From Candidatus Omnitrophota bacterium (lineage in GTDB: Bacteria > Omnitrophota > Gorgyraeia > Gygaellales > Profunditerraquicolaceae): a stretch of 64,000 nt of DNA. The stretch spans positions 539 through 64,538 of the forward strand of contig JALOCE010000001.1 of assembly GCA_023227925.1 (NCBI GenBank). The letters run 5' to 3'. The notes beneath the pieces are model-generated. The model did not search any database and had not been told where the DNA came from. It saw nothing but the letters and a program-made list of their open reading frames with translations. Every line of letters starts with the position of its first letter. Position 1 is the stretch's first letter. Positions 1 through 20,207 of this stretch are shown in pieces. The position numbers were made by a program, and so were the translations under genes.

Positions 1-722
1 AAAATTATGTAAAATATTTGCATGCCGCAAAATCACTAGGTTTTTGGGTGTCTACCACCACCAACTGCTCGTTATTAAATAAAGAAATAGCAGAGGCTAT
101 TATAAGGGAAAAATTAGACCGCATTAACTTAAGTATCTATAGTTCAGATCCTTTAGAGCATCGAGCTTATACGGGAACCGATACTTTTGGGCAAGTGGTG
201 GAGAATGTAAAGTATCTTATAAAATTGTGGCAATCAAGTAACAGGGATACTTTAATTAAGTTCAAATTTTTGAAGATTCCCGGTATAAACGATTATGAAA
301 AATTTAAAGAATTTTGGCAGCCCTTAATTAAGAATACCGGTTTTGAGATCAGTGTCAAGGATCCCGTCAATTGGGGAAGCAGAGTAAATTTTCAAAATAA
401 TAAGCTATTTTTTGGATATCGCCGCCGCAGGCTTTGCAAACAGATAAGGTACCTTTTTTATATACTGCATAACGGTGATGTTTTACCGTGTTGCTGCATA
501 ACTGAAGGTGCAGGTTATGGTGAGGTTGTGTTTGGCAACATGGAGAATGATACTATTATTAAAATCTGGCAGAGCGATAAATATCTAGCCTTTAAAAATA
601 ACCATTATAGAGGTAAATTATCAGCTTACCGGCCCTGCAGGAATTGTTCAGAAGTTTTTTCAGAATTAAATTTTTTACATTGGGTTAAAAAATGTTTGCA
701 TATAAAATTAGCTGTGCTATAA
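1..722 (+). CDS. Radical SAM/SPASM-domain protein, 5' truncated at window edge
   Basis: The reading frame is open back to position 3, so the N-terminus lies outside the window. The C-terminus carries Cys-rich SPASM/twitch-like motifs (VLPCCCITEGAGYG ... YRPCRNCSEV). The upstream portion resembles a radical SAM barrel. Confidence 0.5.
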   Translation, partial: NYVKYLHAAKSLGFWVSTTTNCSLLNKEIAEAIIREKLDRINLSIYSSDPLEHRAYTGTDTFGQVVENVKYLIKLWQSSNRDTLIKFKFLKIPGINDYEKFKEFWQPLIKNTGFEISVKDPVNWGSRVNFQNNKLFFGYRRRRLCKQIRYLFYILHNGDVLPCCCITEGAGYGEVVFGNMENDTIIKIWQSDKYLAFKNNHYRGKLSAYRPCRNCSEVFSELNFLHWVKKCLHIKLAVL

Positions 723-770
723 TTATTTAATTAAGTAATTTAAAAGTAGCGCAATCCAACAATTTAATAG

Positions 771-1796
771 ATGCCAGAATTAAGAAAAGATCCGGTTTTA
801 GGAAGATGGGTTATTATTGCTACGGAACGGGCAAAGCGCCCTGACCAGTTCGCTGGTAAGCCGCAAGAAGGGCCGTTAGAAGAGCCTTGTCCTTTTTGCG
901 AGAATAATGAACCACGCACCCCTCCGGAAATATATGCCATAAGGCCAAAACACACGCCTTCAAATGGGCCAGGTTGGGAATTAAGGGTTGTCCCCAGTAT
1001 CGCGCCATTTTTGAGGATAGAAGGAGAATTGGAGCGCCGGGGAGAAGGCTTGTTTGATCTTATGAACGGCATTGGCGCGCATGAAATAGTCATTGAGACA
1101 AATCAGCATATCGCCAATATGGCAGATTTAAGCGAAGAGCAGATAGCAAAAGTAATAACTTGCTATATTGACAGGACAATAGATTTAGAGAAAGATAAGC
1201 GTTTTAAATATGTTTTAGTCTTTAAAAATTACGGCTGGAGTGCCGGAGGCGGCCGCGTAAAACATTCCCGGTCCCAATTGATCGCGACCCCGGTTAACCC
1301 CAAACGCGTTAAAGAAGAGTTAGTGGGGGCCAGGCAATATTATGATTATCACGAAAGATGTATCTTCTGCGATTTGATAAAGCAGGAGATAGCATCAAAA
1401 GACAGGGTTATCCTCGATATCGATGGTTTCATCGCGGTAACCCCATTTGCCGCACGTTTTCCTTTTGAAGTCTGGATCCTTCCTAAGAAGCATTCCTGTG
1501 ATTTTACCAGTATGGATATGGCGGCGCGCTACTCCTTAAGTTGCATATTGAAAAAAACCTTAGCTAAATTAAAGAAAGGCCTTAATGATCCGCCTTATAA
1601 TTATGTCTTGCATAGTGCGCCTTTCCGTCGCCAAAAAGTAGGCTATTGGAAGAGCATAGATTATGATTATCACTGGCATATCGAGATTATCCCGCGTTTG
1701 ACCAGGGTAGCAGGTTTTGAATGGGGAACGGGTTTTTATATCTGCCCGCTCCCGCCTGAAGATGCAGCCAAGTTTTTAAGAGAGGTCGAGGTTTAA
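771..1796 (+). CDS. Galactose-1-phosphate uridylyltransferase-like HIT-family nucleotidyltransferase, paralogue A, likely catalytically impaired
   Basis: Motifs: CPFCENNE zinc-knuckle and HWHIEIIPRLTRVAGFEWGTGFYI (GalT C-terminal half). The canonical HxHxQ active-site motif reads KHSRSQ here, so the nucleophilic second His is replaced by Arg. Confidence 0.75.
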   Translation: MPELRKDPVLGRWVIIATERAKRPDQFAGKPQEGPLEEPCPFCENNEPRTPPEIYAIRPKHTPSNGPGWELRVVPSIAPFLRIEGELERRGEGLFDLMNGIGAHEIVIETNQHIANMADLSEEQIAKVITCYIDRTIDLEKDKRFKYVLVFKNYGWSAGGGRVKHSRSQLIATPVNPKRVKEELVGARQYYDYHERCIFCDLIKQEIASKDRVILDIDGFIAVTPFAARFPFEVWILPKKHSCDFTSMDMAARYSLSCILKKTLAKLKKGLNDPPYNYVLHSAPFRRQKVGYWKSIDYDYHWHIEIIPRLTRVAGFEWGTGFYICPLPPEDAAKFLREVEV

Positions 1797-2792
1797 ATGT
1801 CTGAATTAAGAAGAGACCCTATCGGTGGAAGATGGGTTATAGTGGATACCGACCATCCAAGCAAGCCCGAAGAATACGAATACGAACCGAATTCTTTTCG
1901 CGGCGGCGTATGCCCTTTCTGTTATGGTAATGAGTCACTTACTCCTCCGGAAATAGAAGCGATCAGGGATCCCAACACTGCACCGAATACTTCCGGTTGG
2001 CAGGTGCGCGTAGTTGCTAATAAATTTCCCGCACTTGGGATCGAAGGGGACCTGGAGAGGCGGGGCCTTGGTATGTATGATATGTCTAACGGAGTGGGAG
2101 CGCACGAAGTTTTGATCGAGACGCCTTACCATGAAAAAGACATTCCGGATCTATTAAATTCTGAAATCGAGAATTTCCTTTCTATGTATTGCCGACGGGC
2201 GCTGGATCTGATAAAAGACAGGCGCTTTAAATATATCATGATCTTTAAGAATTACGGTGCAGCGGCAGGGGCTTCGTTAGAGCATCCCCATACGCAAATG
2301 GTTGCCCTTCCGATGGTGCCCAAGAATGTCATGGAGGAGATAAGGGGGGCACATAACTACTTTGAATATCGCGAACGCTGTATTTTTTGCGATATTATCA
2401 GGCAGGAGACACAAAAGAAAGAAAGGCTTATTTTAGAGAATAAACATTTTTTATCTTTTTGCCCTTTTGTTTCGCGTTTTCCTTTTGAGATTTGGATAAT
2501 CCCCAAGAAACACAATGGGCTCTTTTATCATATGCCTCAGGAGGAAATACCCGACCTGGCTTCAATATTAAAAGATACTATAGCAAAATTAAAGAAGATT
2601 TTCCCCAATGTTTCATATAATTTTATAGTGCATTCTTCCCCTGTAAACGGTGATGGCGGCATAGAGGGTTATCATTGGCACATCGAATTTATGCCTAAAC
2701 TGACTCGTGTTGCCGGTTTTGAATGGGGCACGGGTTTTTACCTTGTCGCCACCCCCCCGGAATTAGCAGCCGAATATCTAAGGAGCAAATAG
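1797..2792 (+). CDS. Galactose-1-phosphate uridylyltransferase-like HIT-family nucleotidyltransferase, paralogue B, intact active site
   Basis: Motifs: CPFCYGNE, EHPHTQMVALP (intact HxHxQ), HWHIEFMPKLTRVAGFEWGTGFY. The start codon directly abuts the stop of paralogue A. Similarity to paralogue A is evident by eye. Confidence 0.8.
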   Translation: MSELRRDPIGGRWVIVDTDHPSKPEEYEYEPNSFRGGVCPFCYGNESLTPPEIEAIRDPNTAPNTSGWQVRVVANKFPALGIEGDLERRGLGMYDMSNGVGAHEVLIETPYHEKDIPDLLNSEIENFLSMYCRRALDLIKDRRFKYIMIFKNYGAAAGASLEHPHTQMVALPMVPKNVMEEIRGAHNYFEYRERCIFCDIIRQETQKKERLILENKHFLSFCPFVSRFPFEIWIIPKKHNGLFYHMPQEEIPDLASILKDTIAKLKKIFPNVSYNFIVHSSPVNGDGGIEGYHWHIEFMPKLTRVAGFEWGTGFYLVATPPELAAEYLRSK

Positions 2793-2812: not shown

Positions 2813-3899
<1,087 letters not shown>

Positions 3900-3924
3900 A
3901 GTTTAGTTTTTATGTGCATCATAA

Positions 3925-3951
3925 GGGCGGATTAGAATCCGCCCTTTTTTT
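3925..3951 (+). terminator. Rho-independent terminator downstream of gap
   Basis: GGGCGGA-ttagaa-TCCGCCC stem-loop followed by TTTTTTT. Confidence 0.8.
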
Positions 3952-3969: not shown

Positions 3970-5463
3970 ATGGATATTCTTCTTATTTCCCCGGACTATA
4001 ATAATAAATTAAGCAACTTTCCCTGGGGTGTATTATCCCTAGCCAGTTATTTGTCTAAAGTTAAGAATTACAAAGTCGTGCTTTTAGACGCCAGCGTTTA
4101 TTCCGAGCCTGATTTCTACCGCAGATTAGAAGAATCCTGTAAGGGGATTAGCCTTGTTGGGGTAAGCCTTATGTCTACGGATACATATTTTGGCAAGAAA
4201 GTTATTGACCGCATCAAAGAGATCGATCCTGAGATAAAAATAATCGTCGGAGGGCCGCATGCCAGGCTCCAGCCGGTATCTACCTGCGCGTATAAGAATA
4301 TTGATTTTGTCGCTTACGCTGATGGAGAGCATACCCTTGAATCCCTCTTTGAAAAAATAAAATCGAAAGATACTGATTACAGTCAAGTGCCCGGGCTTGT
4401 TTATAAAGAGGGAGGTCTGATTAAACGCACGCCTATCTCCAGTTCTCCTGATTTTTACGACATTAACTATGAACTTCTTCCCGAAAGGACAATAAAAGGG
4501 TTTGCAAGGTATATCCAGGTTTTAACCGGGAGAGGATGTAATTTTAAATGCACATTTTGTTTTAATTCCGTCTGTGGGCAGAAATGGCGGGGAAGGCCCA
4601 TGAAGGATGTTGTACGGGAATTAGAGGGTATTGTTGCTGAATATCATCCGTCGATAGTATATTTCAGGGACGACAATTTTTTTCAATCAAAAGAAAGGAT
4701 TTTCGAGTTTATAGAATTATATAAGCATAAAAAATTCACTTTTCAGTGGCGGGCGAGTTGCCGGGTGAATTACTTCAATGAAGGTTATATCACTCCTCAT
4801 GTAATAAAAGAGCTGGAAGCGATTAATTGCCAGGTGCTTAAGTTTGGCCTGGAGAGTGGTTCGCAAAGGATGCTTGATTACCTGAAAAAAGGAATAAATC
4901 TGGAAAAGGTAAAAGAATTGATACTGGTTTTAAGTAAGAGTAAAATAATCAAACCCGAATATTCGCTTATGATAGGGATGCCGAAGGAAACTACCCGGGA
5001 TTATATGGATACCCTTCGGCTCGTAGGTTTTATAAGAAAACATGACCCTCGCGCTGCGATCATCGGCCCTCAGTATTTCCGGGTTTACCCGGGAGGAGAG
5101 CTTTACGAAGAAATAAAAAAGATCTATGGTTACTTTGAGCCGGATTCTTTCGAGGGATGGGCAGAGAAAAGCTCTGACGCTAAGAACAAGTTATTAGGCC
5201 TGGGGCAAGATTTACGTTATCCGTGGGTGCCGGGTAAGTACTTATTTTTGGCCCAAAATGTTTGGCAGCTTGTGCTTTTTAGCCGTCAGGACGTCAAAAG
5301 ATACCTTAGCCTAAAGCTAATGGTGCAAATGCCTTTTATCCTGCTTGCCAAATTAAGGGTAAATTTATGCTGGTATAGCTTCCTCATTGATTTGAGGTTT
5401 GCCGTCTTGCTTAAAGATATAAAGAAACGCCTTCTCACAGTAGGCCATAATGAGATTAATTGA
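3970..5463 (+). CDS. B12-binding (class B) radical SAM protein
   Basis: The N-terminal domain has a cobalamin-binding-like layout (LISPDY...VVLLDAS...IIVGGPHARL). Radical SAM CxxxCxxC motif: LTGRGCNFKCTFCFN. The C-terminus has a hydrophobic tail. Confidence 0.7.
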   Translation: MDILLISPDYNNKLSNFPWGVLSLASYLSKVKNYKVVLLDASVYSEPDFYRRLEESCKGISLVGVSLMSTDTYFGKKVIDRIKEIDPEIKIIVGGPHARLQPVSTCAYKNIDFVAYADGEHTLESLFEKIKSKDTDYSQVPGLVYKEGGLIKRTPISSSPDFYDINYELLPERTIKGFARYIQVLTGRGCNFKCTFCFNSVCGQKWRGRPMKDVVRELEGIVAEYHPSIVYFRDDNFFQSKERIFEFIELYKHKKFTFQWRASCRVNYFNEGYITPHVIKELEAINCQVLKFGLESGSQRMLDYLKKGINLEKVKELILVLSKSKIIKPEYSLMIGMPKETTRDYMDTLRLVGFIRKHDPRAAIIGPQYFRVYPGGELYEEIKKIYGYFEPDSFEGWAEKSSDAKNKLLGLGQDLRYPWVPGKYLFLAQNVWQLVLFSRQDVKRYLSLKLMVQMPFILLAKLRVNLCWYSFLIDLRFAVLLKDIKKRLLTVGHNEIN

Positions 5464-6508
5464 TAAGGAAATATTAGCTAGCCTTTGCTTAAGAAAGAAG
5501 GATCTCCCTTTTCCGGAAGAGCTTATCTTTGAGCCAACCTCCCGCTGTAACTTTAGATGTAAAATGTGTTTTTATGACAGTGAATACTTTAAAATTCAAG
5601 ATAAGGAGATGAGCCTTTCTGAGATTGAAATTTGTATTTCTAATCTTCCCAAAACAATAAAGCGGGTGCTTTTGATAGGCGGAGAGCCCCTACTTAGGAA
5701 AGATATTGTTGATATTGTACGTTTATTTTCACAGAAAAAGATAAAAGTCGCCATTGTTACAAATGGATATTTGTTGACACCTGTTTTGACTGACGAGCTT
5801 AATAAAATAGGAAATATCGATAAAATAGCAATTTCACTCGATGGCCCTCCCGAAATTAATAATAAAATCAGAGGAGTCAAAGATGCTTTTGAGCGTTCTT
5901 ACGCCAACCTAAAGTACGCAGCTGATTATTTCAATACAGAAGTAGTATCTGTGCTTCAAGATGACAATGAAGCAGCATTGCACAGGTTGCTTCCTTATTT
6001 AAAAGAAATTCCTAATGTAGTTTTTATTGTTGAAATTATGCGTAAATATACCCGTCAACTAATCGACGATACGGCAAAGATCCTCCATATGCGCCCAGAA
6101 AATATACATTTACAAGCGTCAGATATTGCTCTTGATAACCGTTCGGTATCGAATATTCTATCTACCTTATCTAACATTAAGCGCGATGCGATTCATATGC
6201 AATTGAAATTACGTACAATTCCAGAAAATGCTTTTGAACGAATACCAAATTTACTGGGAAAGAATGAGAACCTTAATTATCCGCAAATTTGTGGCAGGCT
6301 TCCAAAGGTTAGGTTGGATAGCGTAGGAAATATAATTCAATGTTATGCTATACGTAAACCATTGGGTTCGCTTTTGGAGAAAAAATTAGAAGAAATATGG
6401 AATAGCGAAGATCTTAAAAATTTCCGTAAAGAAATGGTAGAAAAAAACCTTTTTCCGGTTTGTTCGCTTTGTTTTGCAGTAAAAAACCTGGATATTAAAA
6501 AAAAATAG
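5450..6508 (+). CDS. Radical SAM protein with C-terminal SPASM/twitch-like Cys motifs
   Basis: Radical SAM motif: EPTSRCNFRCKMCFY. C-terminal Cys-rich motifs: ICGRLPKVRLDSVGNIIQCYA and FPVCSLCF. Its start overlaps the end of the upstream gene. Confidence 0.7.
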   Translation: MRLIDKEILASLCLRKKDLPFPEELIFEPTSRCNFRCKMCFYDSEYFKIQDKEMSLSEIEICISNLPKTIKRVLLIGGEPLLRKDIVDIVRLFSQKKIKVAIVTNGYLLTPVLTDELNKIGNIDKIAISLDGPPEINNKIRGVKDAFERSYANLKYAADYFNTEVVSVLQDDNEAALHRLLPYLKEIPNVVFIVEIMRKYTRQLIDDTAKILHMRPENIHLQASDIALDNRSVSNILSTLSNIKRDAIHMQLKLRTIPENAFERIPNLLGKNENLNYPQICGRLPKVRLDSVGNIIQCYAIRKPLGSLLEKKLEEIWNSEDLKNFRKEMVEKNLFPVCSLCFAVKNLDIKKK

Positions 6509-6573
6509 ATAAGCAAATATGGAATAGGGCTTGTTTTTTAAGCTAAAGGGCGGTATTAAACCACTCTTTTTCC

Positions 6574-6602
6574 TTGACTTTTTAAAGGGCATTCCCTATA
6601 AT
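6574..6602 (+). promoter_or_regulatory. Consensus sigma70-type promoter (TTGACT, 17-nt spacer, TATAAT) 8 nt upstream of the ATG at 6611
   Basis: The -35 box TTGACT is at 6574-6579 and the -10 box TATAAT at 6597-6602, with an exact 17-nt spacer. The predicted transcription start lies about 1-2 nt before the start codon, implying a leaderless or near-leaderless mRNA. Confidence 0.5.
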
Positions 6603-6610
6603 ATTGTTCA

Positions 6611-8515
6611 ATGAATGAACATATTTCCAGGGAAGATATCTTTAATATTCTCCGTACGTTAGCCACAAATAATAATCCTACCCAGAGAGAGCTATCTACT
6701 CATTTAGGCTTCTCCTTAGGCAAGACTAATTACCTGATCAAAGAGCTGGCCAAAAAAGGCCTGGTAAAGACACAGGCTTTTAGCCATAAAGATAATAAGC
6801 TCAAGAGGATTTCGTATGTTTTGACCCCTCGGGGATTTAAAGAAAAGGCCGGGCTTACTTTACATTTTTTAGAGAAGAAAGAGATTGAATATAATGAACT
6901 TAGGAATGAATGGGAGCATATCAGGAGTTCTCGGCCAAAGGCGGACTTTAATAAAAAAAATCATACTGATATAAACTTCAGGAACTTTTCAGAGGTTATA
7001 GAGTTTAATGCCAGCCACTATCCGCAGAAGTTATTCTGTGCCGATCATTCGACCGATAGGAGCATAACCTATGCGGAATTCAATAGTTATGTGAATCGGT
7101 GTTGTAATTTTCTGAAAGATATGTCTGTAGGCGAGGGTGATATTGTTTCGGTCTGTATAAAAAATGGCATAGCTTTTATGATTATCTATTTCGCCAGTAT
7201 GCGGCTTGGCGCCTCGGTTAATCCGCTTCCTGCCTCTTTATCGTATCAGGAGATTAAAAAGAACATGGAGTTTTTGCCTGTTAAACTGCTATTCGCAGAG
7301 GATAGATTCAAAGGCAATGATTTCACTGGCAAGGGCAGCGTCTTTTTTATGGATTATAAGCATGATTGTTTTTTTGACGCTATATCAAAATACCCTCCGA
7401 GTTATAAATCTATTATAAATGAAGATAGTATCGCCTGTTATTATTACACTTCCGGTACAACCAGCAATCCTAAGTGTATTATGTACACACATAAAAATAT
7501 GGTTTCTCTTGTCAGGTCTATGACTAAGTCTTTTCATTATACTTTGGGCGATATCCACTTAGGGTTTTTGCCGTTAGGCCATACAGCGATTACAAATTAT
7601 CAACTGCTCCCCGCAGTGTATAATGCCAGCACGCTCTTGCTCTATGAAAATTTTATGAAGCTGCGGGCTGATTTTTGGAAGATCGTCCGGGATAATAGCG
7701 TTACTTATGTAGAAGTAGTACCAAGTGTATTATTCATGATGCTAAATACGCCTTATCAAGATGCTGATGTTGCCGGAAATACCACCTTGAAATATATAGG
7801 TTGTGGTTCTGCTCCATTGGCAGTAGATATACAAAAACAAGCCCGGGAAAAATTTGGTATTCCCGTTGCCAACTTGTATGGCCTTTCCGAGACAGGGCCG
7901 ACGCATTTCGATGACCCGTTCAGGGATGGCTGGCGGCCTGGTAGTGTCGGTAAACCCATAGACGCATGCGAATGCAGGATTTTCAGGGAGGATAAAACCG
8001 AGGCCGATATCGGCGAAGTCGGGGAGATCGCGGTTAAAGGCGACAATGTCTTTAGAGGTTATTACAAAAACGACGCAGCCTATCAGCAAGTAATGCATAA
8101 TGGGTACTTTTTGACCGGGGATTTAGGCTATAAAGATGAAGACGGCTACTTTTATTTTGCCGACCGTAAAAAAGACTTGATTATCAAGGGGGGGGTTAAT
8201 ATTGTTCCGGCTGAAGTTGAGGAGGTCCTCTACCAGCTCCAGGAAGTTCAGATCGCCGCAGTAGTAGGCATTGAGGATGTCATTTACGGGGAAGATGTAG
8301 TTGCCTTTGTAAAATTAAAAGATAGTTTCATTATCGGAGAAGACAAAATCAAGGTTTTTTGCGCAGAAAACCTGCAGGGTATTAAGTGCCCGAAAGAAAT
8401 CTATATCATAGGCGATATGCCGCTAGGGCCATCCGGTAAGATCCTTAAGAAAGAGCTCAAGAAAAGATATGCCGAAAATTACTATGGAAGAAAGCAAGCT
8501 GGACAATTACCTTAG
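6611..8515 (+). CDS. Fusion protein: N-terminal MarR_EPS-like winged-helix domain plus AMP-dependent acyl ligase
   Basis: The first roughly 110 aa (QRELSTHLGFSLGKTNYLIKELAKKGLVKTQAFSHKDNKLKRISYVLTPRGFKEKAGLTLHFL) match the EPS-associated MarR family pattern. The rest has the adenylate-forming motif YYTSGTTSNPKC and a C-terminal TGDLGYKDEDGYFYFADRKKDLIIKGGVNI. Confidence 0.75.
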   Translation: MNEHISREDIFNILRTLATNNNPTQRELSTHLGFSLGKTNYLIKELAKKGLVKTQAFSHKDNKLKRISYVLTPRGFKEKAGLTLHFLEKKEIEYNELRNEWEHIRSSRPKADFNKKNHTDINFRNFSEVIEFNASHYPQKLFCADHSTDRSITYAEFNSYVNRCCNFLKDMSVGEGDIVSVCIKNGIAFMIIYFASMRLGASVNPLPASLSYQEIKKNMEFLPVKLLFAEDRFKGNDFTGKGSVFFMDYKHDCFFDAISKYPPSYKSIINEDSIACYYYTSGTTSNPKCIMYTHKNMVSLVRSMTKSFHYTLGDIHLGFLPLGHTAITNYQLLPAVYNASTLLLYENFMKLRADFWKIVRDNSVTYVEVVPSVLFMMLNTPYQDADVAGNTTLKYIGCGSAPLAVDIQKQAREKFGIPVANLYGLSETGPTHFDDPFRDGWRPGSVGKPIDACECRIFREDKTEADIGEVGEIAVKGDNVFRGYYKNDAAYQQVMHNGYFLTGDLGYKDEDGYFYFADRKKDLIIKGGVNIVPAEVEEVLYQLQEVQIAAVVGIEDVIYGEDVVAFVKLKDSFIIGEDKIKVFCAENLQGIKCPKEIYIIGDMPLGPSGKILKKELKKRYAENYYGRKQAGQLP

Positions 8516-10316: not shown

Positions 10317-10562
10317 ATGGAAGAATTAAACAACATTATCAGCCAGGTGTTCGGGATCAAGCAAGACCAGATAAAGGATGAATATGGCCCCAATAATATT
10401 CCTCGTTGGGATTCATTATCGCAGCTTGCTTTGATTTCGGCAATCGAAACTCATTATAAAGTCACGCTGGAGATTGAAGAAATATTTCAGATAATGACCA
10501 TAGGAGATGTCCGTTCTGTCCTGGCAAAGAAATTAAATCAAAATAAGGAAAGTTTAAAATGA
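10317..10562 (+). CDS. Acyl carrier protein
   Basis: The product is 81 aa with a DSLSQLALISAIE phosphopantetheine-attachment motif. Its length and acidity are typical of an ACP. Confidence 0.75.
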   Translation: MEELNNIISQVFGIKQDQIKDEYGPNNIPRWDSLSQLALISAIETHYKVTLEIEEIFQIMTIGDVRSVLAKKLNQNKESLK

Positions 10563-11236
10563 GCGCGGTTAAAAAAATAGTTATTTTTGGGGCAGGTAGA
10601 GGTTCGCGTGATGTTTTGCAGCTTATCAGGCAAATAAACGCTAAGTCTTCTGTATGGGAAATCCTGGGTTTTGTGGATGCCGACCCGGAATTAAAAGGAA
10701 AGCTGATTGATGATTGCCTGGTGTTAGGAGATAAATATGTTGTGCCTGCGCAGGAAACCATATACGGGATAACTGGCGTGCAAATCCCCCAACTCAGGCG
10801 CAAGATCATAGAGAATGAAATTGAAGGCAGGGGTTTATGCCTGGCAAATTTGGTCCATCCGGCAATAGAATTGCCTGCTGATTTACAAATGGAAGCAGGG
10901 TGCATAATCTACCCCGGAGTAATCATTGCTTCAAATGTGAAACTGGGGAAGGCTGTGATCGTCAATTACAATACTCTGCTGGGTATTGATCTGAAAGTCG
11001 GAGACTATGCATTTATCGGCCCGGGAGTAAACATCACAGCCAGTTGTTCTATAGGCAGGGAATGCATCATTGGCACAGGCGCGATTTTTATGCCCGGAGT
11101 TTCCGTAGGCAATGAATCTATTGTCGGATTAGGAACAAAATTATTTATTAGTGTGGGCGACAAGAAAAGTGTTGTTGATTTGCCGCGTAAAATAATGAAG
11201 GATATTAATGAAGCTCCGAAGAAGGTTTCCTGGTGA
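10559..11236 (+). CDS. NeuD/PglD-family sugar N-acyl/acetyltransferase (hexapeptide repeat)
   Basis: N-terminal Rossmann-like KIVIFGAGRGSRDV followed by a left-handed beta-helix with hexapeptide repeats. Its ATG overlaps the ACP stop codon (ATGA). Confidence 0.7.
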   Translation: MSAVKKIVIFGAGRGSRDVLQLIRQINAKSSVWEILGFVDADPELKGKLIDDCLVLGDKYVVPAQETIYGITGVQIPQLRRKIIENEIEGRGLCLANLVHPAIELPADLQMEAGCIIYPGVIIASNVKLGKAVIVNYNTLLGIDLKVGDYAFIGPGVNITASCSIGRECIIGTGAIFMPGVSVGNESIVGLGTKLFISVGDKKSVVDLPRKIMKDINEAPKKVSW

Positions 11237-12246
11237 AAGATAGCCCCATGAAGAAAGTATTTATTATTGCCGAAGCAGGCGTTAATCATAACGGCTCTTT
11301 AGCATTAGCTAAGAGATTAATTGATGCGGCGAAGAAAGCAGGAGCCGATGCCGTTAAATTTCAGTCTTTTATTGCAGAAGAAGGTATTAGTATAAATGCG
11401 CCAAAGGCAGATTATCAGCTTAAAACTACTACCAGGAATGAAAGCCAGATCGAGATGCTTAAAAAGCTGGAACTTTCTTATAGCGACCATCTCAAGCTTT
11501 TAGCTTATTGTAAGAAAAAGAAGATAGGATTTCTCTCAACTGCCTGCGACTTAAAGAGTGTTGATATGTTGAAGCGGTTAAAGGTTAAAGCAATAAAGAT
11601 TGCCTCTTGTGATTTGGTGAATATTCCCCTTTTGCGTTGTGTCGCTAAATTAGGTAAAAAAGTATTTCTTTCAACCGGTATGTCTACGCTTGGCGAAGTA
11701 AGTAATGCAGTGGAGGAGTTAAGAAAGAACGGAAGCCCTGATATTACGCTTTTACATTGCGTTACGGAATATCCCTGTCCGCCTGAAGAAATCAATTTAC
11801 GAAAAATGCTTACACTGAAGAAAAACTTTAATCTACCCGTTGGTTTCTCGGATCACAGCCAGGGGGTATCAACTTCTTTGGCGGCAGTGGCATTGGGGGC
11901 AGAAGTCATAGAGAGGCATTTTACCCTGGATAGAAATCTTAAAGGGCCCGATCATAAGGCATCGCTGGAGCCCGATAGCCTGTTTTCTTTGGTAAAATCA
12001 ATACGGGAAATCGAATCGGCCTTAGGCAGTCCTGAATTTGTGCCCGCGAAATCAGAATTAAAAAATATTAATATCATGCGAAGAAAAATAGTAGCTGCAA
12101 GGGCAATAAAGAAGGGAGAGGTGCTTAGCGCTGGTAACTTAGCATTTAAAAGAGCGCAAGGAGGACTTATTCCCGATAATTATGATTTGGTTGTAGGCAG
12201 GACCGCTACAAAAAATTATAATCCGGATGACGTCATAATATTATGA
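11233..12246 (+). CDS. N-acetylneuraminate / legionaminate / pseudaminate synthase family (NeuB family)
   Basis: Motif FIIAEAGVNHNGSLALAKRLIDAAKKAGADAVKFQ and a C-terminal SAF domain. Confidence 0.85.
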   Translation: MKDSPMKKVFIIAEAGVNHNGSLALAKRLIDAAKKAGADAVKFQSFIAEEGISINAPKADYQLKTTTRNESQIEMLKKLELSYSDHLKLLAYCKKKKIGFLSTACDLKSVDMLKRLKVKAIKIASCDLVNIPLLRCVAKLGKKVFLSTGMSTLGEVSNAVEELRKNGSPDITLLHCVTEYPCPPEEINLRKMLTLKKNFNLPVGFSDHSQGVSTSLAAVALGAEVIERHFTLDRNLKGPDHKASLEPDSLFSLVKSIREIESALGSPEFVPAKSELKNINIMRRKIVAARAIKKGEVLSAGNLAFKRAQGGLIPDNYDLVVGRTATKNYNPDDVIIL

Positions 12247-13124
12247 TCTATGTTTCATCGGAGTGTATCCAGGCAAGGTATATAGTTGAGAATGTCAAAG
12301 AGCTGGCATCTTCGGGATTCAGGCGGATCGAGCTTTCCGGAGGGACAAGTTATTATAATAGTTACCTTGGAGATTTACTCAAGCTAAAAAAAGAACACAA
12401 ACTGGAATATTTAGTGCACAATTATTTCCCTCCCCCTGAAGAAGGCTTTGTTTTGAATCTGGCCTCTTTAAGCGAGAAGGTGAGGAATAGGTCAGTCGAT
12501 TTTTGTAAGAAGGCAATTGAGGTTGCAGCTGTCTTAGGTGCTGGTTATTATTCGGTCCATGCAGGTTTTTACTTTGACCCGGAGATTACAGAGCTGGGAA
12601 AGGTCATTAAACCGCGCAAATTATATCCGGCCGGAGATTCGATACAGGTATTTATAGATAATTTTAAGGCGCTAAAGCAATATGCGTTAGCGCATCGGAT
12701 TAAATTGTACCTGGAAAATAACGTAGTTAATCTTAAGAGTTTTCAATCGTTGAATAAAATGATACCTGCGATGCTGCTTACTTTTGAAGATGCCCGGGAA
12801 TTAGGCAGGAAAATAGATTTTAATCTTCTCTTAGACGTCGGTCATTTAAAAGTCACGGCTCAGACGCTGGGCCTGGATTTTCAAAAACAATTTTCCGGGC
12901 TTTTTAAGATCTCTGATTATCTGCACCTTAGCGATAATAACGGATTGATGGATGAACATGGCTTGATCTTCGATGACTCGATGATCTATAAGATGTTTTT
13001 GGGGCATGATTTAACGCAGAAAACTTTTGTCCTGGAGACACACGGGGAAATAAATGATGTTAAAAAATCCTATGTGCTTATTTCAAACCTGCTGACGCAG
13101 AAAACCAAACAACCCCCGGGGTGA
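12243..13124 (+). CDS. Xylose-isomerase-like TIM-barrel sugar-phosphate isomerase/epimerase (tentative)
   Basis: The length and spaced E/H/D residues (VHAGF ... LYLENN ... LDVGHLK) resemble the AP-endonuclease-2 / sugar phosphate isomerase barrel. There is no stronger motif. Confidence 0.35.
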   Translation: MIYVSSECIQARYIVENVKELASSGFRRIELSGGTSYYNSYLGDLLKLKKEHKLEYLVHNYFPPPEEGFVLNLASLSEKVRNRSVDFCKKAIEVAAVLGAGYYSVHAGFYFDPEITELGKVIKPRKLYPAGDSIQVFIDNFKALKQYALAHRIKLYLENNVVNLKSFQSLNKMIPAMLLTFEDARELGRKIDFNLLLDVGHLKVTAQTLGLDFQKQFSGLFKISDYLHLSDNNGLMDEHGLIFDDSMIYKMFLGHDLTQKTFVLETHGEINDVKKSYVLISNLLTQKTKQPPG

Positions 13125-14572
13125 GCATGGAAATACATAAGTTTACGGTGAATACAGAGGATACGATATTGCGGACAATGCACGCCATTAATGAGGGCGG
13201 TATTGGCGTCGCGGTTATAGAGGATAAGGATAAAAAATATTTTGGCCTGGTCACGGATGGAGATGTAAGGAGGGCCTTACTTGACGGCGTAGATTTACAT
13301 GAGCCGGTAAAGTCAATTGCCAGAAAAGACGCAGTTACTGCATCGGAGAAGACGTCTTATGAGAGCATCTTTTCTCTGATGAATGAAAAAATCCGCCATA
13401 TCCCCATCATTGATGCAAAGGGAAGAGCAAAAGATCTGGTTTATTTTTCTTATAGAAAAGAGATTCCTGTTGCCAAGCCTTTTTTAAGAGGTAACGAATT
13501 AAAATATGTAACGGAATGTATCCTGGGTAATTGGATATCTTCCCAGGGCAACTATGTAAATGAGCTTGAGAGGCGTTTCTCCGAATTCTGCGGGGTAGAC
13601 TATAGCCTGGCTGTTTCTAATGGCACTGTAGCTTTACATCTTGCCTTAGTTTGTTTAGGTATAAAAAGAGGCGATGAGGTGATCGTTCCTTCGCTTACTT
13701 TTATTGCCACCGCTAATGCAGTGACTTATACAGGGGCAAAACCGGTTTTTGTAGACTCGGAGTGCGATACTTATAATATCGATCCTCGAAAAATTGAAAA
13801 AGCTGTGACTCGCCGCACAAAAGCGATTATCCCGGTCCATCTCTACGGGCAACCGGCAAAGATGGATGAGATCATGGCTATTGCCCGAAAGCATAAAATT
13901 CATGTAGTAGAAGATGCCGCGGAAGCCCATGGCGCTGAGTATAAGCAAAAGAAGGTCGGCTCTATAGGCGATATAGGTTGTTTTAGCTTTTTTGGCAATA
14001 AGATCATAACTACCGGTGAAGGCGGGATGGTAGTTACGAATAATCATAAAATTTATCAGAAGGCCAGGATATTAAGAGACCATGGTATGTCCCTGGAAAA
14101 AAAATATTGGCACGAGCAGGTCGGCTTTAATTATCGGATGACCAATGTCCAGGCAGCTATAGGGTGCGCCCAGATGGAGAAAGTCGAAGTTATTTTAAAA
14201 GAAAAGCAAAAAATTGCCCGGATGTATAAAAAATATCTATCCCCGGATTCCCGTCTTATCCTGCCGCAGGAATTTGACTGGTCAAAAAATGTTTACTGGA
14301 TGTATCCGGTAACTTTTAAGACTACAGGTAAAAATAAGGAGAATGTAAGAAACAAGATCATTGAATTTTTAGCGCAGGATAGCATAGGAGCCAGGCCGTT
14401 CTTTTATCCTATCCATACTATGCCGCCGTATTATTCTAAGTCAAGGCTTCCTGTAGCCGAATCTGTTTCTGAAAACGGGATCGTGCTTCCCGCTTATATG
14501 GGTATGCAGGAAAAAGAGATCCAGAGAATATGTAATTTAATAAAAACTACTTTAGATAAAATATTAAGCTGA
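13121..14572 (+). CDS. CBS-pair domain fused to DegT/DnrJ/EryC1-family PLP-dependent sugar aminotransferase
   Basis: The N-terminal roughly 120 aa carry two CBS-like repeats (GLVTDGDVRRALLDG ... IRHIPIIDAKGRAKDLVY). The remainder has the aminotransferase signature GNWISSQGNYVNELERRFSEFCGVDYSLAVSNGTVALHLAL. Confidence 0.8.
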   Translation: MSMEIHKFTVNTEDTILRTMHAINEGGIGVAVIEDKDKKYFGLVTDGDVRRALLDGVDLHEPVKSIARKDAVTASEKTSYESIFSLMNEKIRHIPIIDAKGRAKDLVYFSYRKEIPVAKPFLRGNELKYVTECILGNWISSQGNYVNELERRFSEFCGVDYSLAVSNGTVALHLALVCLGIKRGDEVIVPSLTFIATANAVTYTGAKPVFVDSECDTYNIDPRKIEKAVTRRTKAIIPVHLYGQPAKMDEIMAIARKHKIHVVEDAAEAHGAEYKQKKVGSIGDIGCFSFFGNKIITTGEGGMVVTNNHKIYQKARILRDHGMSLEKKYWHEQVGFNYRMTNVQAAIGCAQMEKVEVILKEKQKIARMYKKYLSPDSRLILPQEFDWSKNVYWMYPVTFKTTGKNKENVRNKIIEFLAQDSIGARPFFYPIHTMPPYYSKSRLPVAESVSENGIVLPAYMGMQEKEIQRICNLIKTTLDKILS

Positions 14573-14573
14573 G

Positions 14574-16010
14574 ATGAAAAAAAAGGGAAGAGTACTTCTG
14601 ATCGTACACGATGTTTATCAGGATGATAATGTATTTCCTATGGGCGTAGGCTATCTGGCATCTTTTTTGGAAAGAGAAGGAGCAGGCGTAACCGTATATT
14701 CACAGGATGTTTTTCATTATACAAATCAGGATTTAGCTAAATTCCTGCTCGAGAATGAGTTTGATTTAATAGGTGTTGGCTTTCTGGCGGCGAGATTCAA
14801 AGAGACTATTCTCGATCTATGTAAAATCGTAAATGAATGCAAAAAAGATGCTTTTCTGGTGTTAGGTGCCCATGGCCCTTCGCCTATTCCGGAATATATC
14901 CTGGATAAAACCAATGCCGATATCATAGTTATTGGCGAAGCAGAAGAGACAATGGCAGATTTACTTGAATGTAAATTATCCGGTGGCAAAGACCTGCATA
15001 AGATCAGAGGAATAGCGTATAGAAAAAACTCCGTTTGTTGTATCAATCCCAGGCGCACCCCTGTTAAAGATTTGGACTTAATCCCTTTTCCTGCCTGGCA
15101 CTTATTCCCGATTGAGAAATATGCTACTTGTCTTAAGCTCTTTGGCCATAAAGAAACCAATAGATATATGCCTATTATTACAAGCAGGGGCTGCGTCAAT
15201 GAATGCAACTTTTGTTATAGAATCGAAAAGGGGTTCAGGCTAAGAAGCATAGAGAGCATTATCCAGGAAATAAAGATTTTAAATAGCGAATACGGCATAA
15301 ATTATTTTCTTATTTTTGATGAATTATTCCTTATCTCCAAGAAACGCTTGAAAGATTTCAAGGGTGCCTTAGAGAAGAATAACCTTAAAATAGAGTTTTC
15401 TTGCAATGCGAGGGCGGATATCCTGGATGAAGAATCTCTCCGGATGATGAAAGAATGCGGATGCAGATTGATCAGTTTTGGTCTGGAATCGACGGATCAA
15501 AGCGTGCTGAATTTAATGAATAAAAATACTACAGCCGAACAGAATCTTAGAGCGGTAGAATTAACAAAAAAAGCAGGTATTGGCATAGGGTTATGTTTTA
15601 TATGGGGCAACAAAGGGGATAATGAGGCTACTCTTAAGTCAAACCTGGCATTTATAAAGAAGTATAATACCTATGATCAGATCAGGACTATAAGGCCGGT
15701 TACGCCTTTTCCAGGCAGTAAGTTGTATTATGAGGCGATAGAGAATGGGTTATTAGGGGGCCCGGAAGATTTTTTTGCGAAATTTAAGAATTCCGATCTC
15801 CTGACAGTGAATTTTACGAATATACCGGATAAGAATTTTTATGAGCTGCTGTTCGAGGCAAATAGAGAACTTATCCTGGATCATTATAACCATACCGGTG
15901 GAAATACGGAAGCCGCCAATACCCTGATCGATCAATTCCAAAGGTTATATTTTTTAGGCGAGCATAAATTCAGAGGGGCGCGGCATTACAAACGGATAGA
16001 AGTAAAATGA
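14574..16010 (+). CDS. B12-binding (class B) radical SAM protein
   Basis: N-terminal B12-like domain (VLLIVHDVYQDDNVFPMGVGYLASFL) and radical SAM motif ITSRGCVNECNFCYR. Confidence 0.7.
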   Translation: MKKKGRVLLIVHDVYQDDNVFPMGVGYLASFLEREGAGVTVYSQDVFHYTNQDLAKFLLENEFDLIGVGFLAARFKETILDLCKIVNECKKDAFLVLGAHGPSPIPEYILDKTNADIIVIGEAEETMADLLECKLSGGKDLHKIRGIAYRKNSVCCINPRRTPVKDLDLIPFPAWHLFPIEKYATCLKLFGHKETNRYMPIITSRGCVNECNFCYRIEKGFRLRSIESIIQEIKILNSEYGINYFLIFDELFLISKKRLKDFKGALEKNNLKIEFSCNARADILDEESLRMMKECGCRLISFGLESTDQSVLNLMNKNTTAEQNLRAVELTKKAGIGIGLCFIWGNKGDNEATLKSNLAFIKKYNTYDQIRTIRPVTPFPGSKLYYEAIENGLLGGPEDFFAKFKNSDLLTVNFTNIPDKNFYELLFEANRELILDHYNHTGGNTEAANTLIDQFQRLYFLGEHKFRGARHYKRIEVK

Positions 16011-16891: not shown

Positions 16892-18568
16892 ATGCATCTT
16901 GCCAAAAGAAATAAAATAAACGTGTTGTTTATCAATCTCCCCTATCTTCCTTACGATACTATACTTGAAAAAATACGCAATGAAGATAAGATAGCCCATC
17001 GTTTAGAGATGCCGTTAGGTATCTTGTACTTATCCGCGTATCTGAAAAAACATAATCATCTTTGCGATATCAGGCTCCTGGATTATTCACTGCATATCGA
17101 TGATATCCGCACTTATTCGAATATAGATAATTTTATAAAGTCCCTTGCTAAAAAGGTTGATTTTGTCCCTGATATATTGGCTTTTTCGGCGATGTTTTCG
17201 ACATCGCATCGTTTTTTTGTTGAAACGCTTGATATCCTTAAGTCTCTTTGGCCCAAGGTTACTACCATTGCCGGAGGCAATCACGCTACTAATGCGGTTG
17301 GTAAATTACTAGAATTAGAAAATCTTGATTATGTTGCGATAGGGGAAGCGGAAGCGTCTTTTTCCGAATTCGTCAGTCAAATCGCAGCCTCAAAACAAAT
17401 CAATATCAAAGGCATTTATGCTAAAAAAGATATTCATTCTGCCGCATCTTTTTCAAGCCCCGGTTATATTGAGGACTTGGATAGTTTGCCTTTTCCGGAT
17501 TGGGATCTTTTAAATATGGCGGCTTATATCAATTCTAAGGGGCGAAAGCGGAACATAGGCGAGTCTAAAGAAAGTAGATGCGCCACCATCATGACTAGCA
17601 GGGGCTGCCCTTTTTGCTGTACTTTTTGTGCTGCCCATACGGTTCATGGCCGAAGGGTGCGCTATCGTTCAGTTGAAAATATATTAGAAGAAGTAAAGCT
17701 CCTGTATCGTGCGTATGAAATAACGCTATTTATCCCAGAGGATGATATGTTTACGCAAGATAAACAAAGAACGCTAAATTTACTTTCTGCTTTTAAAGAA
17801 CTTAATATTCCAGGCCTGGAGTTGCAGTTTCCTAATGCGCTGTCTATTAATACTTTAAGCGAAGAAGTATTGGATGCTCTTATTAATTCCGGCATGAAAG
17901 TAGCTTGTCTGGCTATCGAATCAGGGTCTGAATATGTCCAGAAGAATGTTATCAAGAAGAATTGTAATTTAAAAAAAGCTAAAGAATATGTGGAGTATTT
18001 AGGAGATAAAGGGACTATCGTCAGGTGTTATTATATCTTAGGATTCCCCGGAGAGACAAAAGAGCAAATGATGGAGACTGTCGAATATGCCAAATATTTA
18101 AATGCGGACTGGTCAGTATTCAGCATAGCAACGCCTCTATTAGGCTCAGAAATGTACAATCAGTTTTTGCAGATGGGTTGTATAACAGGTGAATTGTATT
18201 GGGGGGTTAACGCCTCCTATGCAAAAAGAAATTTTGATACCAAGGAAATAACCGCCGAAGAATTAAATGCCTTTGCTTATCAGGCGAACATCGATGTAAA
18301 CTTTATTCATAATCCTAATATTGTAAACGGAAATTTTACCCGGGCAATAGAAATTTTTAATGATATCGTCATACATTTTCCTTTTCATATTATTGCCTGG
18401 CATTGTTTAATGCGTTGTTATCAGGGCTTAGGAGATATAGAAAAGGCTAAGGAAATCACCAGGAAGATCGCCGTTTTAATCAATTCCGATAAAAGATCCG
18501 CGGAGATGTTTGCTAAATACGGTCGGCTATTACCTGAATCCTCCGGAGAGGAATTATTAAGAATATGA
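16892..18568 (+). CDS. B12-binding (class B) radical SAM protein with C-terminal helical (TPR-like) extension
   Basis: N-terminal B12-like domain (INVLFINLPY...) and radical SAM motif MTSRGCPFCCTFCAAH. Confidence 0.7.
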   Translation: MHLAKRNKINVLFINLPYLPYDTILEKIRNEDKIAHRLEMPLGILYLSAYLKKHNHLCDIRLLDYSLHIDDIRTYSNIDNFIKSLAKKVDFVPDILAFSAMFSTSHRFFVETLDILKSLWPKVTTIAGGNHATNAVGKLLELENLDYVAIGEAEASFSEFVSQIAASKQINIKGIYAKKDIHSAASFSSPGYIEDLDSLPFPDWDLLNMAAYINSKGRKRNIGESKESRCATIMTSRGCPFCCTFCAAHTVHGRRVRYRSVENILEEVKLLYRAYEITLFIPEDDMFTQDKQRTLNLLSAFKELNIPGLELQFPNALSINTLSEEVLDALINSGMKVACLAIESGSEYVQKNVIKKNCNLKKAKEYVEYLGDKGTIVRCYYILGFPGETKEQMMETVEYAKYLNADWSVFSIATPLLGSEMYNQFLQMGCITGELYWGVNASYAKRNFDTKEITAEELNAFAYQANIDVNFIHNPNIVNGNFTRAIEIFNDIVIHFPFHIIAWHCLMRCYQGLGDIEKAKEITRKIAVLINSDKRSAEMFAKYGRLLPESSGEELLRI

Positions 18569-19518: not shown

Positions 19519-20207
19519 AAATATTATGTATTATCTGCGCAAGGGCCGGCTCAAAGGGCCTGCCGGGTAAGAATATACGTTCTTTGCTGGGTAAACCTTT
19601 AATCGCGCATACTATCAAGCAGGCGATTTCCTCAGGTTTATTTGAGCATGTTGTAGTCAGCACTGATTCTTCCAGGATTGCCGGTATCGCTAAAAAATAT
19701 AAAGCGGAAGTACCTTTTTTGAGGCCAAAGAAGCTTGCCGGAGATACGTGCCCGAAATTACCATCTATAAGGCATGCGTTGCTTGAATGCGAAAAGTTAT
19801 TTAATACAAAATTTGATATTATTGTTGATCTTGATCCTACTTCGCCGTTAAGAACAATAGAAGATATCAGGAATTGCGTAGAGATTTTAATAAAGAAGCA
19901 TGCTAGTAATGTGATTACTGCTATGCCTGCCAGGAGGTCCCCTTATTTTAATTTGATAGAGATCTATCCAGGCGGCCGTATCGGATTATCCAAAAAAACT
20001 AAGCCGCCGATTACCTGCCGGCAAAACTCTCCGAAGTGTTTTGATATGAATGCTTCTATCTATGCCTGGAAGAGACAGGCATTATTGAAAAATGATAGCT
20101 TATTTTTGAAGAAAACTGCGCTTTATGTGATGCCGGAAGAACGCTCTATTGATATTGACAATGAAATTGATTTTAAGTTTGTGGAGTTTTTAGCCAACAG
20201 GCACTAA
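19503..20207 (+). CDS. CMP-nonulosonic acid synthetase (acylneuraminate cytidylyltransferase family, NeuA-like)
   Basis: N-terminal motif ILCIICARAGSKGLPGKNIRSLLGKPLIAHTI. A possible alternative start lies at 19515. Confidence 0.8.
   Translation: MDRAMKILCIICARAGSKGLPGKNIRSLLGKPLIAHTIKQAISSGLFEHVVVSTDSSRIAGIAKKYKAEVPFLRPKKLAGDTCPKLPSIRHALLECEKLFNTKFDIIVDLDPTSPLRTIEDIRNCVEILIKKHASNVITAMPARRSPYFNLIEIYPGGRIGLSKKTKPPITCRQNSPKCFDMNASIYAWKRQALLKNDSLFLKKTALYVMPEERSIDIDNEIDFKFVEFLANRH

Follow-up and report, generated by a model that had tools for sequence, protein, structure and literature searches.

Introduction

Class I GalTs and their Arabidopsis relative At5g18200, an ADP-glucose phosphorylase, are homodimers that have their active sites between the two subunits and require dimerization (bioRxiv 10.64898/2026.09.13.751320). 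In human GALT, the glucose-1-phosphate (G1P) site is formed by residues K334-Q346 of one chain together with Q188 and N173 of the other, and Arg48 sits on the chain opposite Gln188 (PMC5081055). Molecular dynamics (MD) simulations of human GALT found persistent contacts between the subunits (Arg48A-Phe99B, His47A-Pro100B, Ser45A-Ala101B and Arg51B-Asp98A, where A and B are the two GALT chains), with G1P bound mainly by Arg48 and Arg51 (PMC8513031). By these contacts, the arm of each chain rests on the partner's N97-D98-F99 strand, within the partner's active site. The pair of tandem GalT-like genes described here lies in a 64,000-nucleotide stretch of DNA from a Candidatus Omnitrophota bacterium (GenBank assembly GCA_023227925.1, contig JALOCE010000001.1, positions 539 to 64,538 of the forward strand), which is termed the window below. 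The first open reading frame (ORF), ORF A (771-1796, + strand), encodes a GalT-like/ADP-glucose-phosphorylase-like protein of 341 amino acids and is the predicted non-catalytic partner subunit. The second, ORF B (1797-2792, + strand), encodes a GalT-like protein of 331 amino acids with an intact HxHxQ motif and is the predicted catalytic subunit. A and B are two co-inherited paralogues with complementary losses of the residues that a GalT-type site takes from its own chain (in cis) and from its partner (in trans).

Heteromers in which a catalytic and a pseudoenzyme paralogue share active sites are known from other families, such as the trypanosomatid deoxyhypusine synthase DHSc/DHSp, AdoMetDC/prozyme, and the small and large subunits of plant ADP-glucose pyrophosphorylase (AGPase). 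The likeness of the A-B pair to these systems would lie in complementary losses within a duplicated oligomeric enzyme, in the presence of one live and one dead site in each dimer, and in a dead paralogue that is indispensable or regulatory. The difference is that their folds and chemistries are unrelated to those of GalT, and that they are mostly eukaryotic. To our knowledge, there is no example of a catalytic/pseudoenzyme paralogue heteromer in the HIT/GalT family, and neither a HIT pseudoenzyme heterodimer nor a heteromeric GalT/HIT enzyme was found in the literature searched.

Family and fold of the two copies

The original prediction described A and B as tandem GalT-like proteins, and this is borne out by comparison of the two. 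Full-length identity between the two is 49% (BLASTP, E=2e-119), and both score above the gathering score for PF01087, the GalT N-terminal domain (A 34.6 bits, B 43.3 bits), and for PF02744, the C-terminal domain (A 48.1 bits, B 55.4 bits). Both also pass TIGR00209, with 107.3 bits for A (cut-off 102.1) and 132.1 bits for B, while neither reaches the equivalog model NF008724, for which A scores 123.6 bits and B 137.7 bits against a cut-off of 448. Judged by these profile scores, A and B are GalT-branch HIT members and not equivalog-level UDP-glucose:hexose-1-phosphate uridylyltransferases. They share PF01087 and PF02744 with the class I GalTs of E. coli and human, in whose dimers each site is completed by N-terminal arm arginines and a C-terminal loop from the partner; in the pair, the sequence determinants of such a dimer are split, with arm and loop in A and only the loop in B. 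They differ from these enzymes in that identity is only ~20-25%, NF008724 scores are far below the cut-off, and the pair has no Leloir context; neither the annotated window genes (up to 48587) nor the neighbor families of related loci include a Leloir gene.

The best solved homologue of both proteins is At5g18200 (1Z84), which matches A with 249 bits (E=8e-73) and B with 220 bits (E=3.5e-64). A is closer than B both to At5g18200 and to the single-copy outgroup enzymes. An AlphaFold2 (AF2) monomer model of A superimposes on the At5g18200 structure with a TM-score of 0.72-0.80; this model is of moderate quality (pLDDT 72, pTM 0.77, residues 68-112 below 50) and served for fold confirmation only. 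The likeness to At5g18200 (PDB 1Z84, 1ZWJ and 2H39) extends to the fold, the zinc knuckle, the second CxxC site and the register of the HxHxQ motif. At5g18200 differs in being a homodimer with two identical sites and a His nucleophile, whereas here there are two diverged chains with half of the determinants each.

The zinc knuckle, CPFC, is found at residues 40-43 of A (888..899, + strand; C40 and C43) and at residues 39-42 of B, with a conservation of at least 0.97 in the A, B and single-copy groups, and both ORFs also contain the C-terminal HWHIE and FEWGTGFY motifs. The putative structural zinc site, comprising C40, C43, H113 and H165 of A and their equivalents in B, is 97-100% conserved in all groups. 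At a second CxxC metal site, the CIFC of A (residues 197-200) aligns with the CCLC of At5g18200, and C197, C200, H241, H301 and H303 are 100% conserved.

The nearest database proteins come from metagenome-assembled genomes (MAGs) and are 98% identical to A and 100% identical to B. Single-copy bacterial GalT-like proteins from Nitrospirota, Zixibacteria, Ignavibacteria, KSB1, Acidobacteriota and other groups share 52-57% identity with A and 47-55% with B, and they resemble both in length and motifs. The difference is that these proteins carry the cis and trans determinants in one chain and are encoded in glycogen operons, whereas the Omnitrophota pair is found with gap and pgk. In public databases, those close A-type clusters that have a source name are called "galactose-1-phosphate uridylyltransferase", "UDPglucose--hexose-1-phosphate uridylyltransferase" or DUF4931. 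Because A-type proteins without a nucleophile bear such labels, the uridylyltransferase activity is counted too often when Omnitrophota metabolism is reconstructed.

Complementary loss of cis and trans determinants

In GalT-type dimers, an active site draws a cis set from one chain, namely the HxHxQ nucleophile, the GAS loop and an Asn-(Asp/Lys)-Phe nucleotide strand, and a trans set from the partner chain, namely the arginines of the N-terminal arm and the sugar loop near the C-terminus. These sets were followed in an alignment of 32 A-type, 31 B-type and 49 single-copy proteins, and the pattern was rechecked on the 120 closest 90%-identity clusters each for A-type and B-type, to which the counts out of 120 refer. 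The single-copy enzymes (n=49) keep both sets, with the nucleophile His in 100%, R20 in 100% and R23 in 88%. Their motifs are an N-terminal (S/A)TER-x-(K/R)RP arm, a PNKFPAL strand, an AGAS-LEH-x-H-x-Q loop and a C-terminal RVAGFEWGTGFYINP loop.

Copy A retains the trans set. Its N-terminal arm, ATERAKRP (residues 17-24; 819..842, + strand), keeps R20 in 120/120 clusters and R23 in 118/120, and these residues correspond to E. coli R28/R31 in the HMMER alignment and to human R48/R51. Its C-terminal loop, RVAGFEWGTGFYIC (residues 312-325; 1704..1745, + strand), which in GalT dimers provides the sugar contacts of the partner, is also conserved. The cis set of A is degenerate. The nucleotide-binding strand (PNKFPAL in single-copy enzymes, N77-D78-F79 in E. 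coli) reads PSIAPFL (residues 75-81; 993..1013, + strand); the strand Asn is replaced by Ser76 in 120/120 A clusters versus Asn in 120/120 B clusters, and position 77 is I or V in A versus Lys in 120/120 B clusters. The active-site loop, AGGGRVKHSRSQ (residues 158-169; 1242..1277, + strand), is remodeled, such that GAS has become GGGR with a one-residue insertion, Glu has become Lys164, and the nucleophile His has become Arg167 (codon 167 at 1269-1271). G161 is found in 116/120 clusters, the inserted Arg162 in 109/120, and Lys or Arg at position 164 in 98/120, where B has Glu in 120/120. N153 and Q169 of A are each retained in 120/120.

The original prediction took copy B to be the catalytic member of the pair, with an intact motif, and its cis set is indeed intact. 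The nucleotide-binding strand of B, ANKFPAL (residues 74-80; 2016..2036, + strand), has N75 and K76 each in 120/120 clusters, and its HIT motif, HPHTQ (H163-Q167; 2283..2297, + strand), contains the nucleophile His165 and is preceded by a conserved GAS-LE, with S160, E162 and H165 each in 120/120. The N-terminal arm of B, which that prediction passed over, is degenerate. This arm reads DTDHPSKP (residues 17-24; 1845..1868, + strand), and both conserved arginines (E. coli R28/R31) are gone: position 20 is His in 117 clusters and Cys, Lys and Asn in 1 each of 120, but never Arg, while position 23 is Lys in 87 and Arg in 7.

Conservation can also be expressed as mean entropy in bits. Over the cis pocket, mean entropy is 1.09 for A, 0.35 for B and 0.61 for the single-copy enzymes, while over the N-terminal arm it is 0.41, 1.87 and 0.86, respectively. 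The corresponding values are 0.31, 0.49 and 0.47 for the C-terminal loop and 1.01, 1.15 and 1.31 for the whole protein. The B arm is essentially unconstrained across the phylum, and the same complementary pattern is found in 31 tandem pairs that span the phylum. In the crown group, which includes the window, the otherwise invariant Asn of FYINP (position 325 of A), a possible counterpart of E. coli Q323, is replaced by Cys in A (120/120) and by Val in B. Given this change in both chains, sugar or acceptor specificity may have shifted.

A proposed composite active site

The distribution of retained and lost residues suggests that A and B probably form an obligate heterodimeric GalT-family (At5g18200-like) nucleotidyltransferase or nucleoside diphosphate (NDP)-glucose phosphorylase with one composite active site. 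In such a dimer, B would supply the cis set, its trans arm being gone, and A would supply the trans arm and the sugar loop, its cis set being gone. A:A dimers would be without a nucleophile, and B:B dimers would be without the phosphate-binding arginines. Because cis determinants are kept in B and trans determinants in A, only the A:B dimer would rebuild one canonical site, consisting of His165, Ser160 and Asn75 of B together with R20/R23 and the C-terminal loop of A. This composite site would run normal ping-pong nucleotidyl transfer via a covalent nucleotidyl-His (His-NMP, where NMP is nucleoside monophosphate) intermediate. The contact between the A arm and the B strand is conserved on both sides, while the contact between the B arm and the A strand is degenerate on both sides. 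Even with the literature set aside, a pattern in which the nucleophile-bearing copy has lost an invariant Arg and the nucleophile-less copy keeps it is, at the level of sequence, hard to explain otherwise.

That A might be a pseudoenzyme or a partner subunit had been proposed before, and this is the best reading of A, given that the arm arginines lost in B are kept in A. The complementarity of cis and trans losses turns the question of a pseudoenzyme into a specific heterodimer model. If the model is true, a natural GalT heterodimer would offer a testable case of complementary degeneration, either by constructive neutral evolution or by subfunctionalization at the dimer interface. It would also mean hard-wired half-of-sites catalysis in a family of textbook symmetric homodimers with two shared sites.

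Several points weigh against an obligate heterodimer. It is from papers on human and E. coli GalT that the arm arginines are assigned a trans role, which would apply to A and B by analogy. In the crown group, the B arm is fixed as D-T-D-H-P-x-K-P (His 117/120), and the His and Lys of B might partly replace the Arg/Arg pair, allowing an active B homodimer. The C-terminal loop of B would feed only the dead pocket, yet it is conserved (entropy 0.49), and S76, N153, Q169 and R167 of A are fixed and not drifting, so that mere decay does not describe the second pocket. In addition, three nucleophile-less GalT-like proteins described below (P0132, P0131 and P0124) have no catalytic copy called in the surrounding DNA read. 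Finally, A and B are not sisters in a neighbor-joining (NJ) tree (0/50 bootstraps).

The second pocket

In the A:B heterodimer, the second pocket would be dead on both sides and rebuilt as a positively charged cavity lined by R162, K164 and R167. Three cations have been gained here in cis and two have been lost from the B arm. This would suit a structural plug, and equally a regulatory site that has kept the ability to bind an anion or hexose phosphate.

The latter option extends the heterodimer model and can be put forward only tentatively. It holds that the dead pocket of A:B is an allosteric or product-sensing site for a hexose phosphate or other anion, in which the sugar would be held by the C-terminal loop of B and by N153 and Q169 of A, and the phosphate by the cis cations R162, K164 and R167, which would stand in for the arginines that the B arm has lost. 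A possible analogue is the regulatory large subunit of plant AGPase. Such a site is consistent with the retention of Arg or Lys at position 167 in 120/120 clusters through five codons, with the change at position 164 from Glu (B 120/120) to Lys or Arg (98/120), and with the inserted Arg162 (109/120). N153 and Q169 are kept in 120/120 A clusters, the B loop stays conserved, and the conserved neighbors gap and pgk make phosphorylated glycolytic intermediates. However, it is in the cis pocket that A varies most when compared with B (entropy 1.09 against 0.35), and Arg167 could merely plug and stabilize an empty pocket. Moreover, S, Y, V, C, I or L takes this position in other lineages without the nucleophile, so there is no general need for a cation.

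Stated in full, this proposal describes a half-of-sites A:B enzyme whose sensor pocket binds no nucleotide and which would tune NDP-glucose or glycogen turnover to gap-pgk flux; in that form it is doubtful. If a sensor pocket does exist, no allosteric pseudo-active-site would have been described before it in the HIT/GalT superfamily, and the pair would be a clean natural example of the passage from a shared-site homodimer to a catalytic-plus-regulatory heterodimer.

The nucleophile position of copy A

The absence of the nucleophilic His from copy A, noted earlier, is confirmed by alignment. The motif of A is VKHSRSQ (H165-S-R167-S-Q169), with the Arg codon CGG at 1269-1271, and that of B is EHPHTQ (H163-P-H165-T-Q167). 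In the HMMER alignment, R167 of A falls exactly on the nucleophile His of the At5g18200 motif MSHSHSQ, and the structure 2H39 is a Gly mutant at the matching position of At5g18200. An HxHxQ motif with the nucleophile His is present in B (HPHTQ) and absent from A (HSRSQ), which marks A as a family member by descent and predicts that it is not a GalT-type catalyst. A different, intact HxHxQ elsewhere in A, which would have undone this assignment, is not found; the sole other HxH in A is that of HWHIE, which is common to A, B and all single-copy relatives.

The original prediction left two further matters to be checked, namely whether the Arg is conserved among orthologues and whether the codon could be a sequencing error. 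Position 167 is Arg in 114 and Lys in 6 of the 120 A-type clusters, and across genome loci the Arg is encoded by CGC, CGT, CGA, CGG and AGG. A change from CGG to CAY takes two base changes. A sequencing error is ruled out by this two-base distance, by the presence of Arg or Lys in 120/120 clusters and by the use of five Arg codons. The possibility that A is a pseudogene is likewise ruled out, by the 120/120 conservation, the five Arg codons and a dN/dS of ~0.05. The Nei-Gojobori method, applied to unsaturated orthologue pairs, gives dN/dS values of 0.034, 0.057 and 0.066 for A, and for B values of 0.029, 0.045 and 0.050. A is the slower-evolving copy, its conservation exceeding that of B in 88% of genome pairs. 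Being conserved and under purifying selection, A is therefore a functional protein and not a decaying copy.

These same data bear on the idea that A is an enzyme itself, acting by a non-covalent in-line mechanism or on a different donor, with Arg167 stabilizing the transition state. Strong purifying selection, with A more conserved than B, speaks for it, as do the selection of Arg at the nucleophile position and the retention of both metal sites, N153, Q169 and the zinc-ligand His165. However, the strand Asn-Lys and the GAS serine have been lost along with the nucleophile, and the surrounding pocket residues vary between orthologues. The arm arginines due from B are also gone, so that neither A:A nor A:B would have a canonical cage at the A pocket. 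In addition, replacements of the GalT nucleophile such as H166G abolish normal turnover. An independent activity of A, one of the options of the original prediction, is disfavored by the loss and variability of its nucleotide strand and Ser loop, and is unlikely.

Loss of the nucleophile is not confined to the tandem pairs. About 15 of 147 top family representatives (~15/147) are without the nucleophile His, and the residues found in its place vary (S, Y, V, C, I or L). From these sequences, loss appears to be recurrent in the family and not always accompanied by an adjacent partner. Three such proteins are P0132 (locus L081, 4001-5026), P0131 (L087, 1626-2672) and P0124 (L088, 1704-2708), whose motifs are HPVSY, HSYSH and HCSSR, respectively. 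No catalytic copy is called in the DNA read around any of the three, which extends 4 kb to one side of P0132 and 3.2 kb to the other, but only ~0.7 kb downstream of P0131. P0131 adjoins a baeRF-family gene and DUF123. Of the other two, one lies between a type III pantothenate kinase gene and a Usp gene and one lies after fmt, the latter being followed by an 850-bp stretch without a called gene.

A different arrangement is seen in P0144 (L084, 54-2669, JGI sample 3300017323), a protein of 871 amino acids with two complete GalT-like units, in which HAHSQ and HPHSQ are both intact. P0144 is thus a natural fusion of the usual dimer.

Distribution and inheritance of the pair

A scan of one genome per species gave 80 loci, comprising 32 A-type loci and 48 others with a single gene and intact HxHxQ. 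The A-type loci are found in Omnitrophota and in MAGs labeled Planctomycetes or PVC that cluster with them. A B-type gene follows A on the same strand in 31/31 A-type loci where the contig continues. In the window, the A-B junction (1782..1799, + strand) consists of GAGG, 5 nt, the stop codon TAA and, directly after it, the ATG of B. The distance from the A stop to the B start is at most 10 nt in 25/30 related loci, with a median of 0, which suggests translational coupling of A and B. Judged by this adjacency or overlap of stop and start in 25/30 loci, the two genes would be co-expressed.

In NJ trees, the A clade is supported by 45/50 and the B clade by 42/50 bootstraps, and the internal topologies of the two are congruent. 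Pairwise identities of A and B correlate (r=0.89). From the congruent subtrees and this correlation, A and B have therefore been co-inherited since early in the phylum.

Co-inheritance is relevant to the alternative that A is independent of B, that is, a protein without enzymatic activity that binds or regulates, perhaps as a homodimer, with the tandem arrangement reflecting shared regulation only. Although nucleophile-less GalT-like proteins exist without a catalytic copy in the DNA read around them, this alternative leaves the stop-start coupling (25/30), the strict co-occurrence and the congruent trees unexplained. It also does not explain why B has lost the invariant arm arginines that A retains in 120/120 clusters. 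Independence of A is thus distinctly improbable.

With respect to origin, A groups with Nitrospirota single-copy enzymes in the NJ tree, and monophyly of A and B is recovered in 0/50 bootstraps. This tree therefore lends no support to a simple recent tandem duplication, although NJ trees built from Kimura distances are weak evidence. An old duplication and an acquisition are both compatible with the NJ result.

Divergent members of the group extend the pattern. The tandem pairs of loci L085 and L086, which are much more divergent (A ~46-47% identical), show the same pattern and architecture and lie behind priA-def-fmt. At L019 and L020, the nucleophile codon of A is still CAT (His), although A carries the loop insertion and no longer has N76, and the arm of B is already without its arginines. 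From these sequences, the two loci look like an intermediate state. A-type genes with a nucleophile His (CAT) and the loop insertion are found at 6001-7029 in both L019 and L020 and at 5983-7014 in L025. L019 and L020 are nested among Arg-bearing lineages, and L021 has CGC. Their nesting implies either repeated His-to-Arg losses or an Arg-to-His reversal.

Genomic neighborhood

The gene directly downstream of B in the window is gap, encoding glyceraldehyde-3-phosphate dehydrogenase (GAPDH; 2881..3899, + strand), with a likely start at ATG 2881 preceded by an AAGGAGG ribosome-binding site. It is followed by a terminator-like hairpin (3923..3946, + strand) with a 10-bp stem containing 6 GC pairs and a T-run, and this hairpin precedes the first gene of a glycan cluster, at 3970. 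Among A-type loci, gap follows B in 27/32, and pgk, often next after gap, is found downstream in 13 loci. The conserved upstream neighbor of A-B loci is priA(-def-fmt). Of the window genes tested (up to the NeuB gene ending at 12246), gap alone is matched in the relative loci that were fetched, and the radical-SAM and nonulosonic-acid genes among them have 0 matches in any related locus.

The original prediction placed the pair at the head of a glycan cluster and suggested an unusual sugar interconversion step. In this reading, the pair would be a dedicated NDP-sugar interconversion step for the downstream glycan or nonulosonic-acid cluster. What favors it is physical adjacency, which is seen in this window only. 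The conserved neighbors are instead priA(-def-fmt) upstream and gap(-pgk) downstream, gap alone among the tested window genes matches relative loci, and the hairpin at 3923-3946 stands between gap and the cluster. Relatives of the pair are moreover linked or fused to glycogen enzymes, and the single-copy ones lie in glycogen operons and not in glycan clusters. A role of A-B in the glycan cluster is rejected on the synteny and terminator evidence and must be considered highly improbable.

Upstream of A, a promoter-like site, TTTGCA-17-TATAAT with a TG (695..723, + strand), matches 10/12 consensus positions, although such sites are not above shuffle expectation in this region. The 88-nt spacer between B and gap (2793-2880) contains two GC-rich hairpins, CCCCCTGCGGGGG at ~2813-2829 and GTCCGCCA...TGGCGGAC at ~2836-2860, both upstream of the AAGGAGG and ATG 2881 of gap. 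These hairpins could be an attenuator or an element of mRNA processing or stability within the A-B-gap unit. An Rfam scan of the window gave 0 matches.

Possible substrate and the link to glycogen

The substrate of the A:B enzyme can be suggested more weakly than its architecture. By analogy, it may be ADP-glucose or another NDP-glucose, used with phosphate or hexose-1-phosphate, because the nearest solved homologue is the ADP-glucose phosphorylase At5g18200 and because relatives are found in the context of glycogen operons. Enzymes of the At5g18200 type interconvert ADP-glucose plus Pi and Glc-1-P plus ADP by way of an adenylyl-His intermediate. At the single-copy loci (n=49), the GT5 glycogen synthase gene glgA is the next gene in 28 and a GH57 gene in 14, and GlgC-like nucleotidyltransferases are found as well. 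Natural fusions of the single-copy type to GlgA (P0151) and to GH57 (P0171 and P0197) also exist.

It has been reported that glycogen synthesis is encoded in Omnitrophota MAGs (PMC8542988). Nothing relevant to GalT in Omnitrophota glycogen metabolism was found in the literature searched, and GalT or ADP-glucose phosphorylase is not mentioned in the searched part of a 2024 review of prokaryotic alpha-glucan enzymes (PMC11046441). In many phyla (loci L030-L080), At5g18200-like genes directly precede genes for GT5 glycogen synthase, GH57 and GlgC-like proteins, and they may represent a step of bacterial glycogen metabolism that has received too little description. The gap in knowledge is a broad one, as At5g18200-like genes lie in, or are fused to, the glycogen operons (glgA, GH57, glgC-like) of many bacterial phyla.

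The downstream glycan array

Beyond gap, the annotated part of the window (3970-48590) is one long co-directional glycan array, with all genes on the + strand, and ORFs continue on this strand to ~63218. Two more pairs of paralogues are found in the array, at 20220-21569 and 22413-23759 and at 37005-37997 and 38019-38990, which are 59% and 62% identical, respectively. These four paralogues and the ORFs at 23766-25100 and 39980-40669 have 0 Pfam matches at E<=1e-5 and no obvious transmembrane segments.

Genes of recognizable family are numerous. NeuB homologues are encoded at 11233-12246 and at 27809-30193, the latter as a fusion in which NeuB and SAF are joined to an FAD amine-oxidase/GLF-like domain. 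CMP-sugar cytidylyltransferases are found at 19503-20207 and 27122-27790, and a CBS-DegT aminotransferase at 13121-14572. B12-binding radical SAM enzymes are located at 3970-5463, 14574-16010 and 16892-18568, and SPASM radical SAM enzymes at 18-722 and 5450-6508. A wHTH-fused AMP-ligase (6611-8515) and an acyl carrier protein (ACP; 10317-10562) are also present, together with PdxA-like, IMPase-like and MptE-like genes, an ABC exporter, and many GT2/GT4 and methyltransferase genes. With this content, the array looks like a pathway for a heavily tailored nonulosonic-acid glycan.

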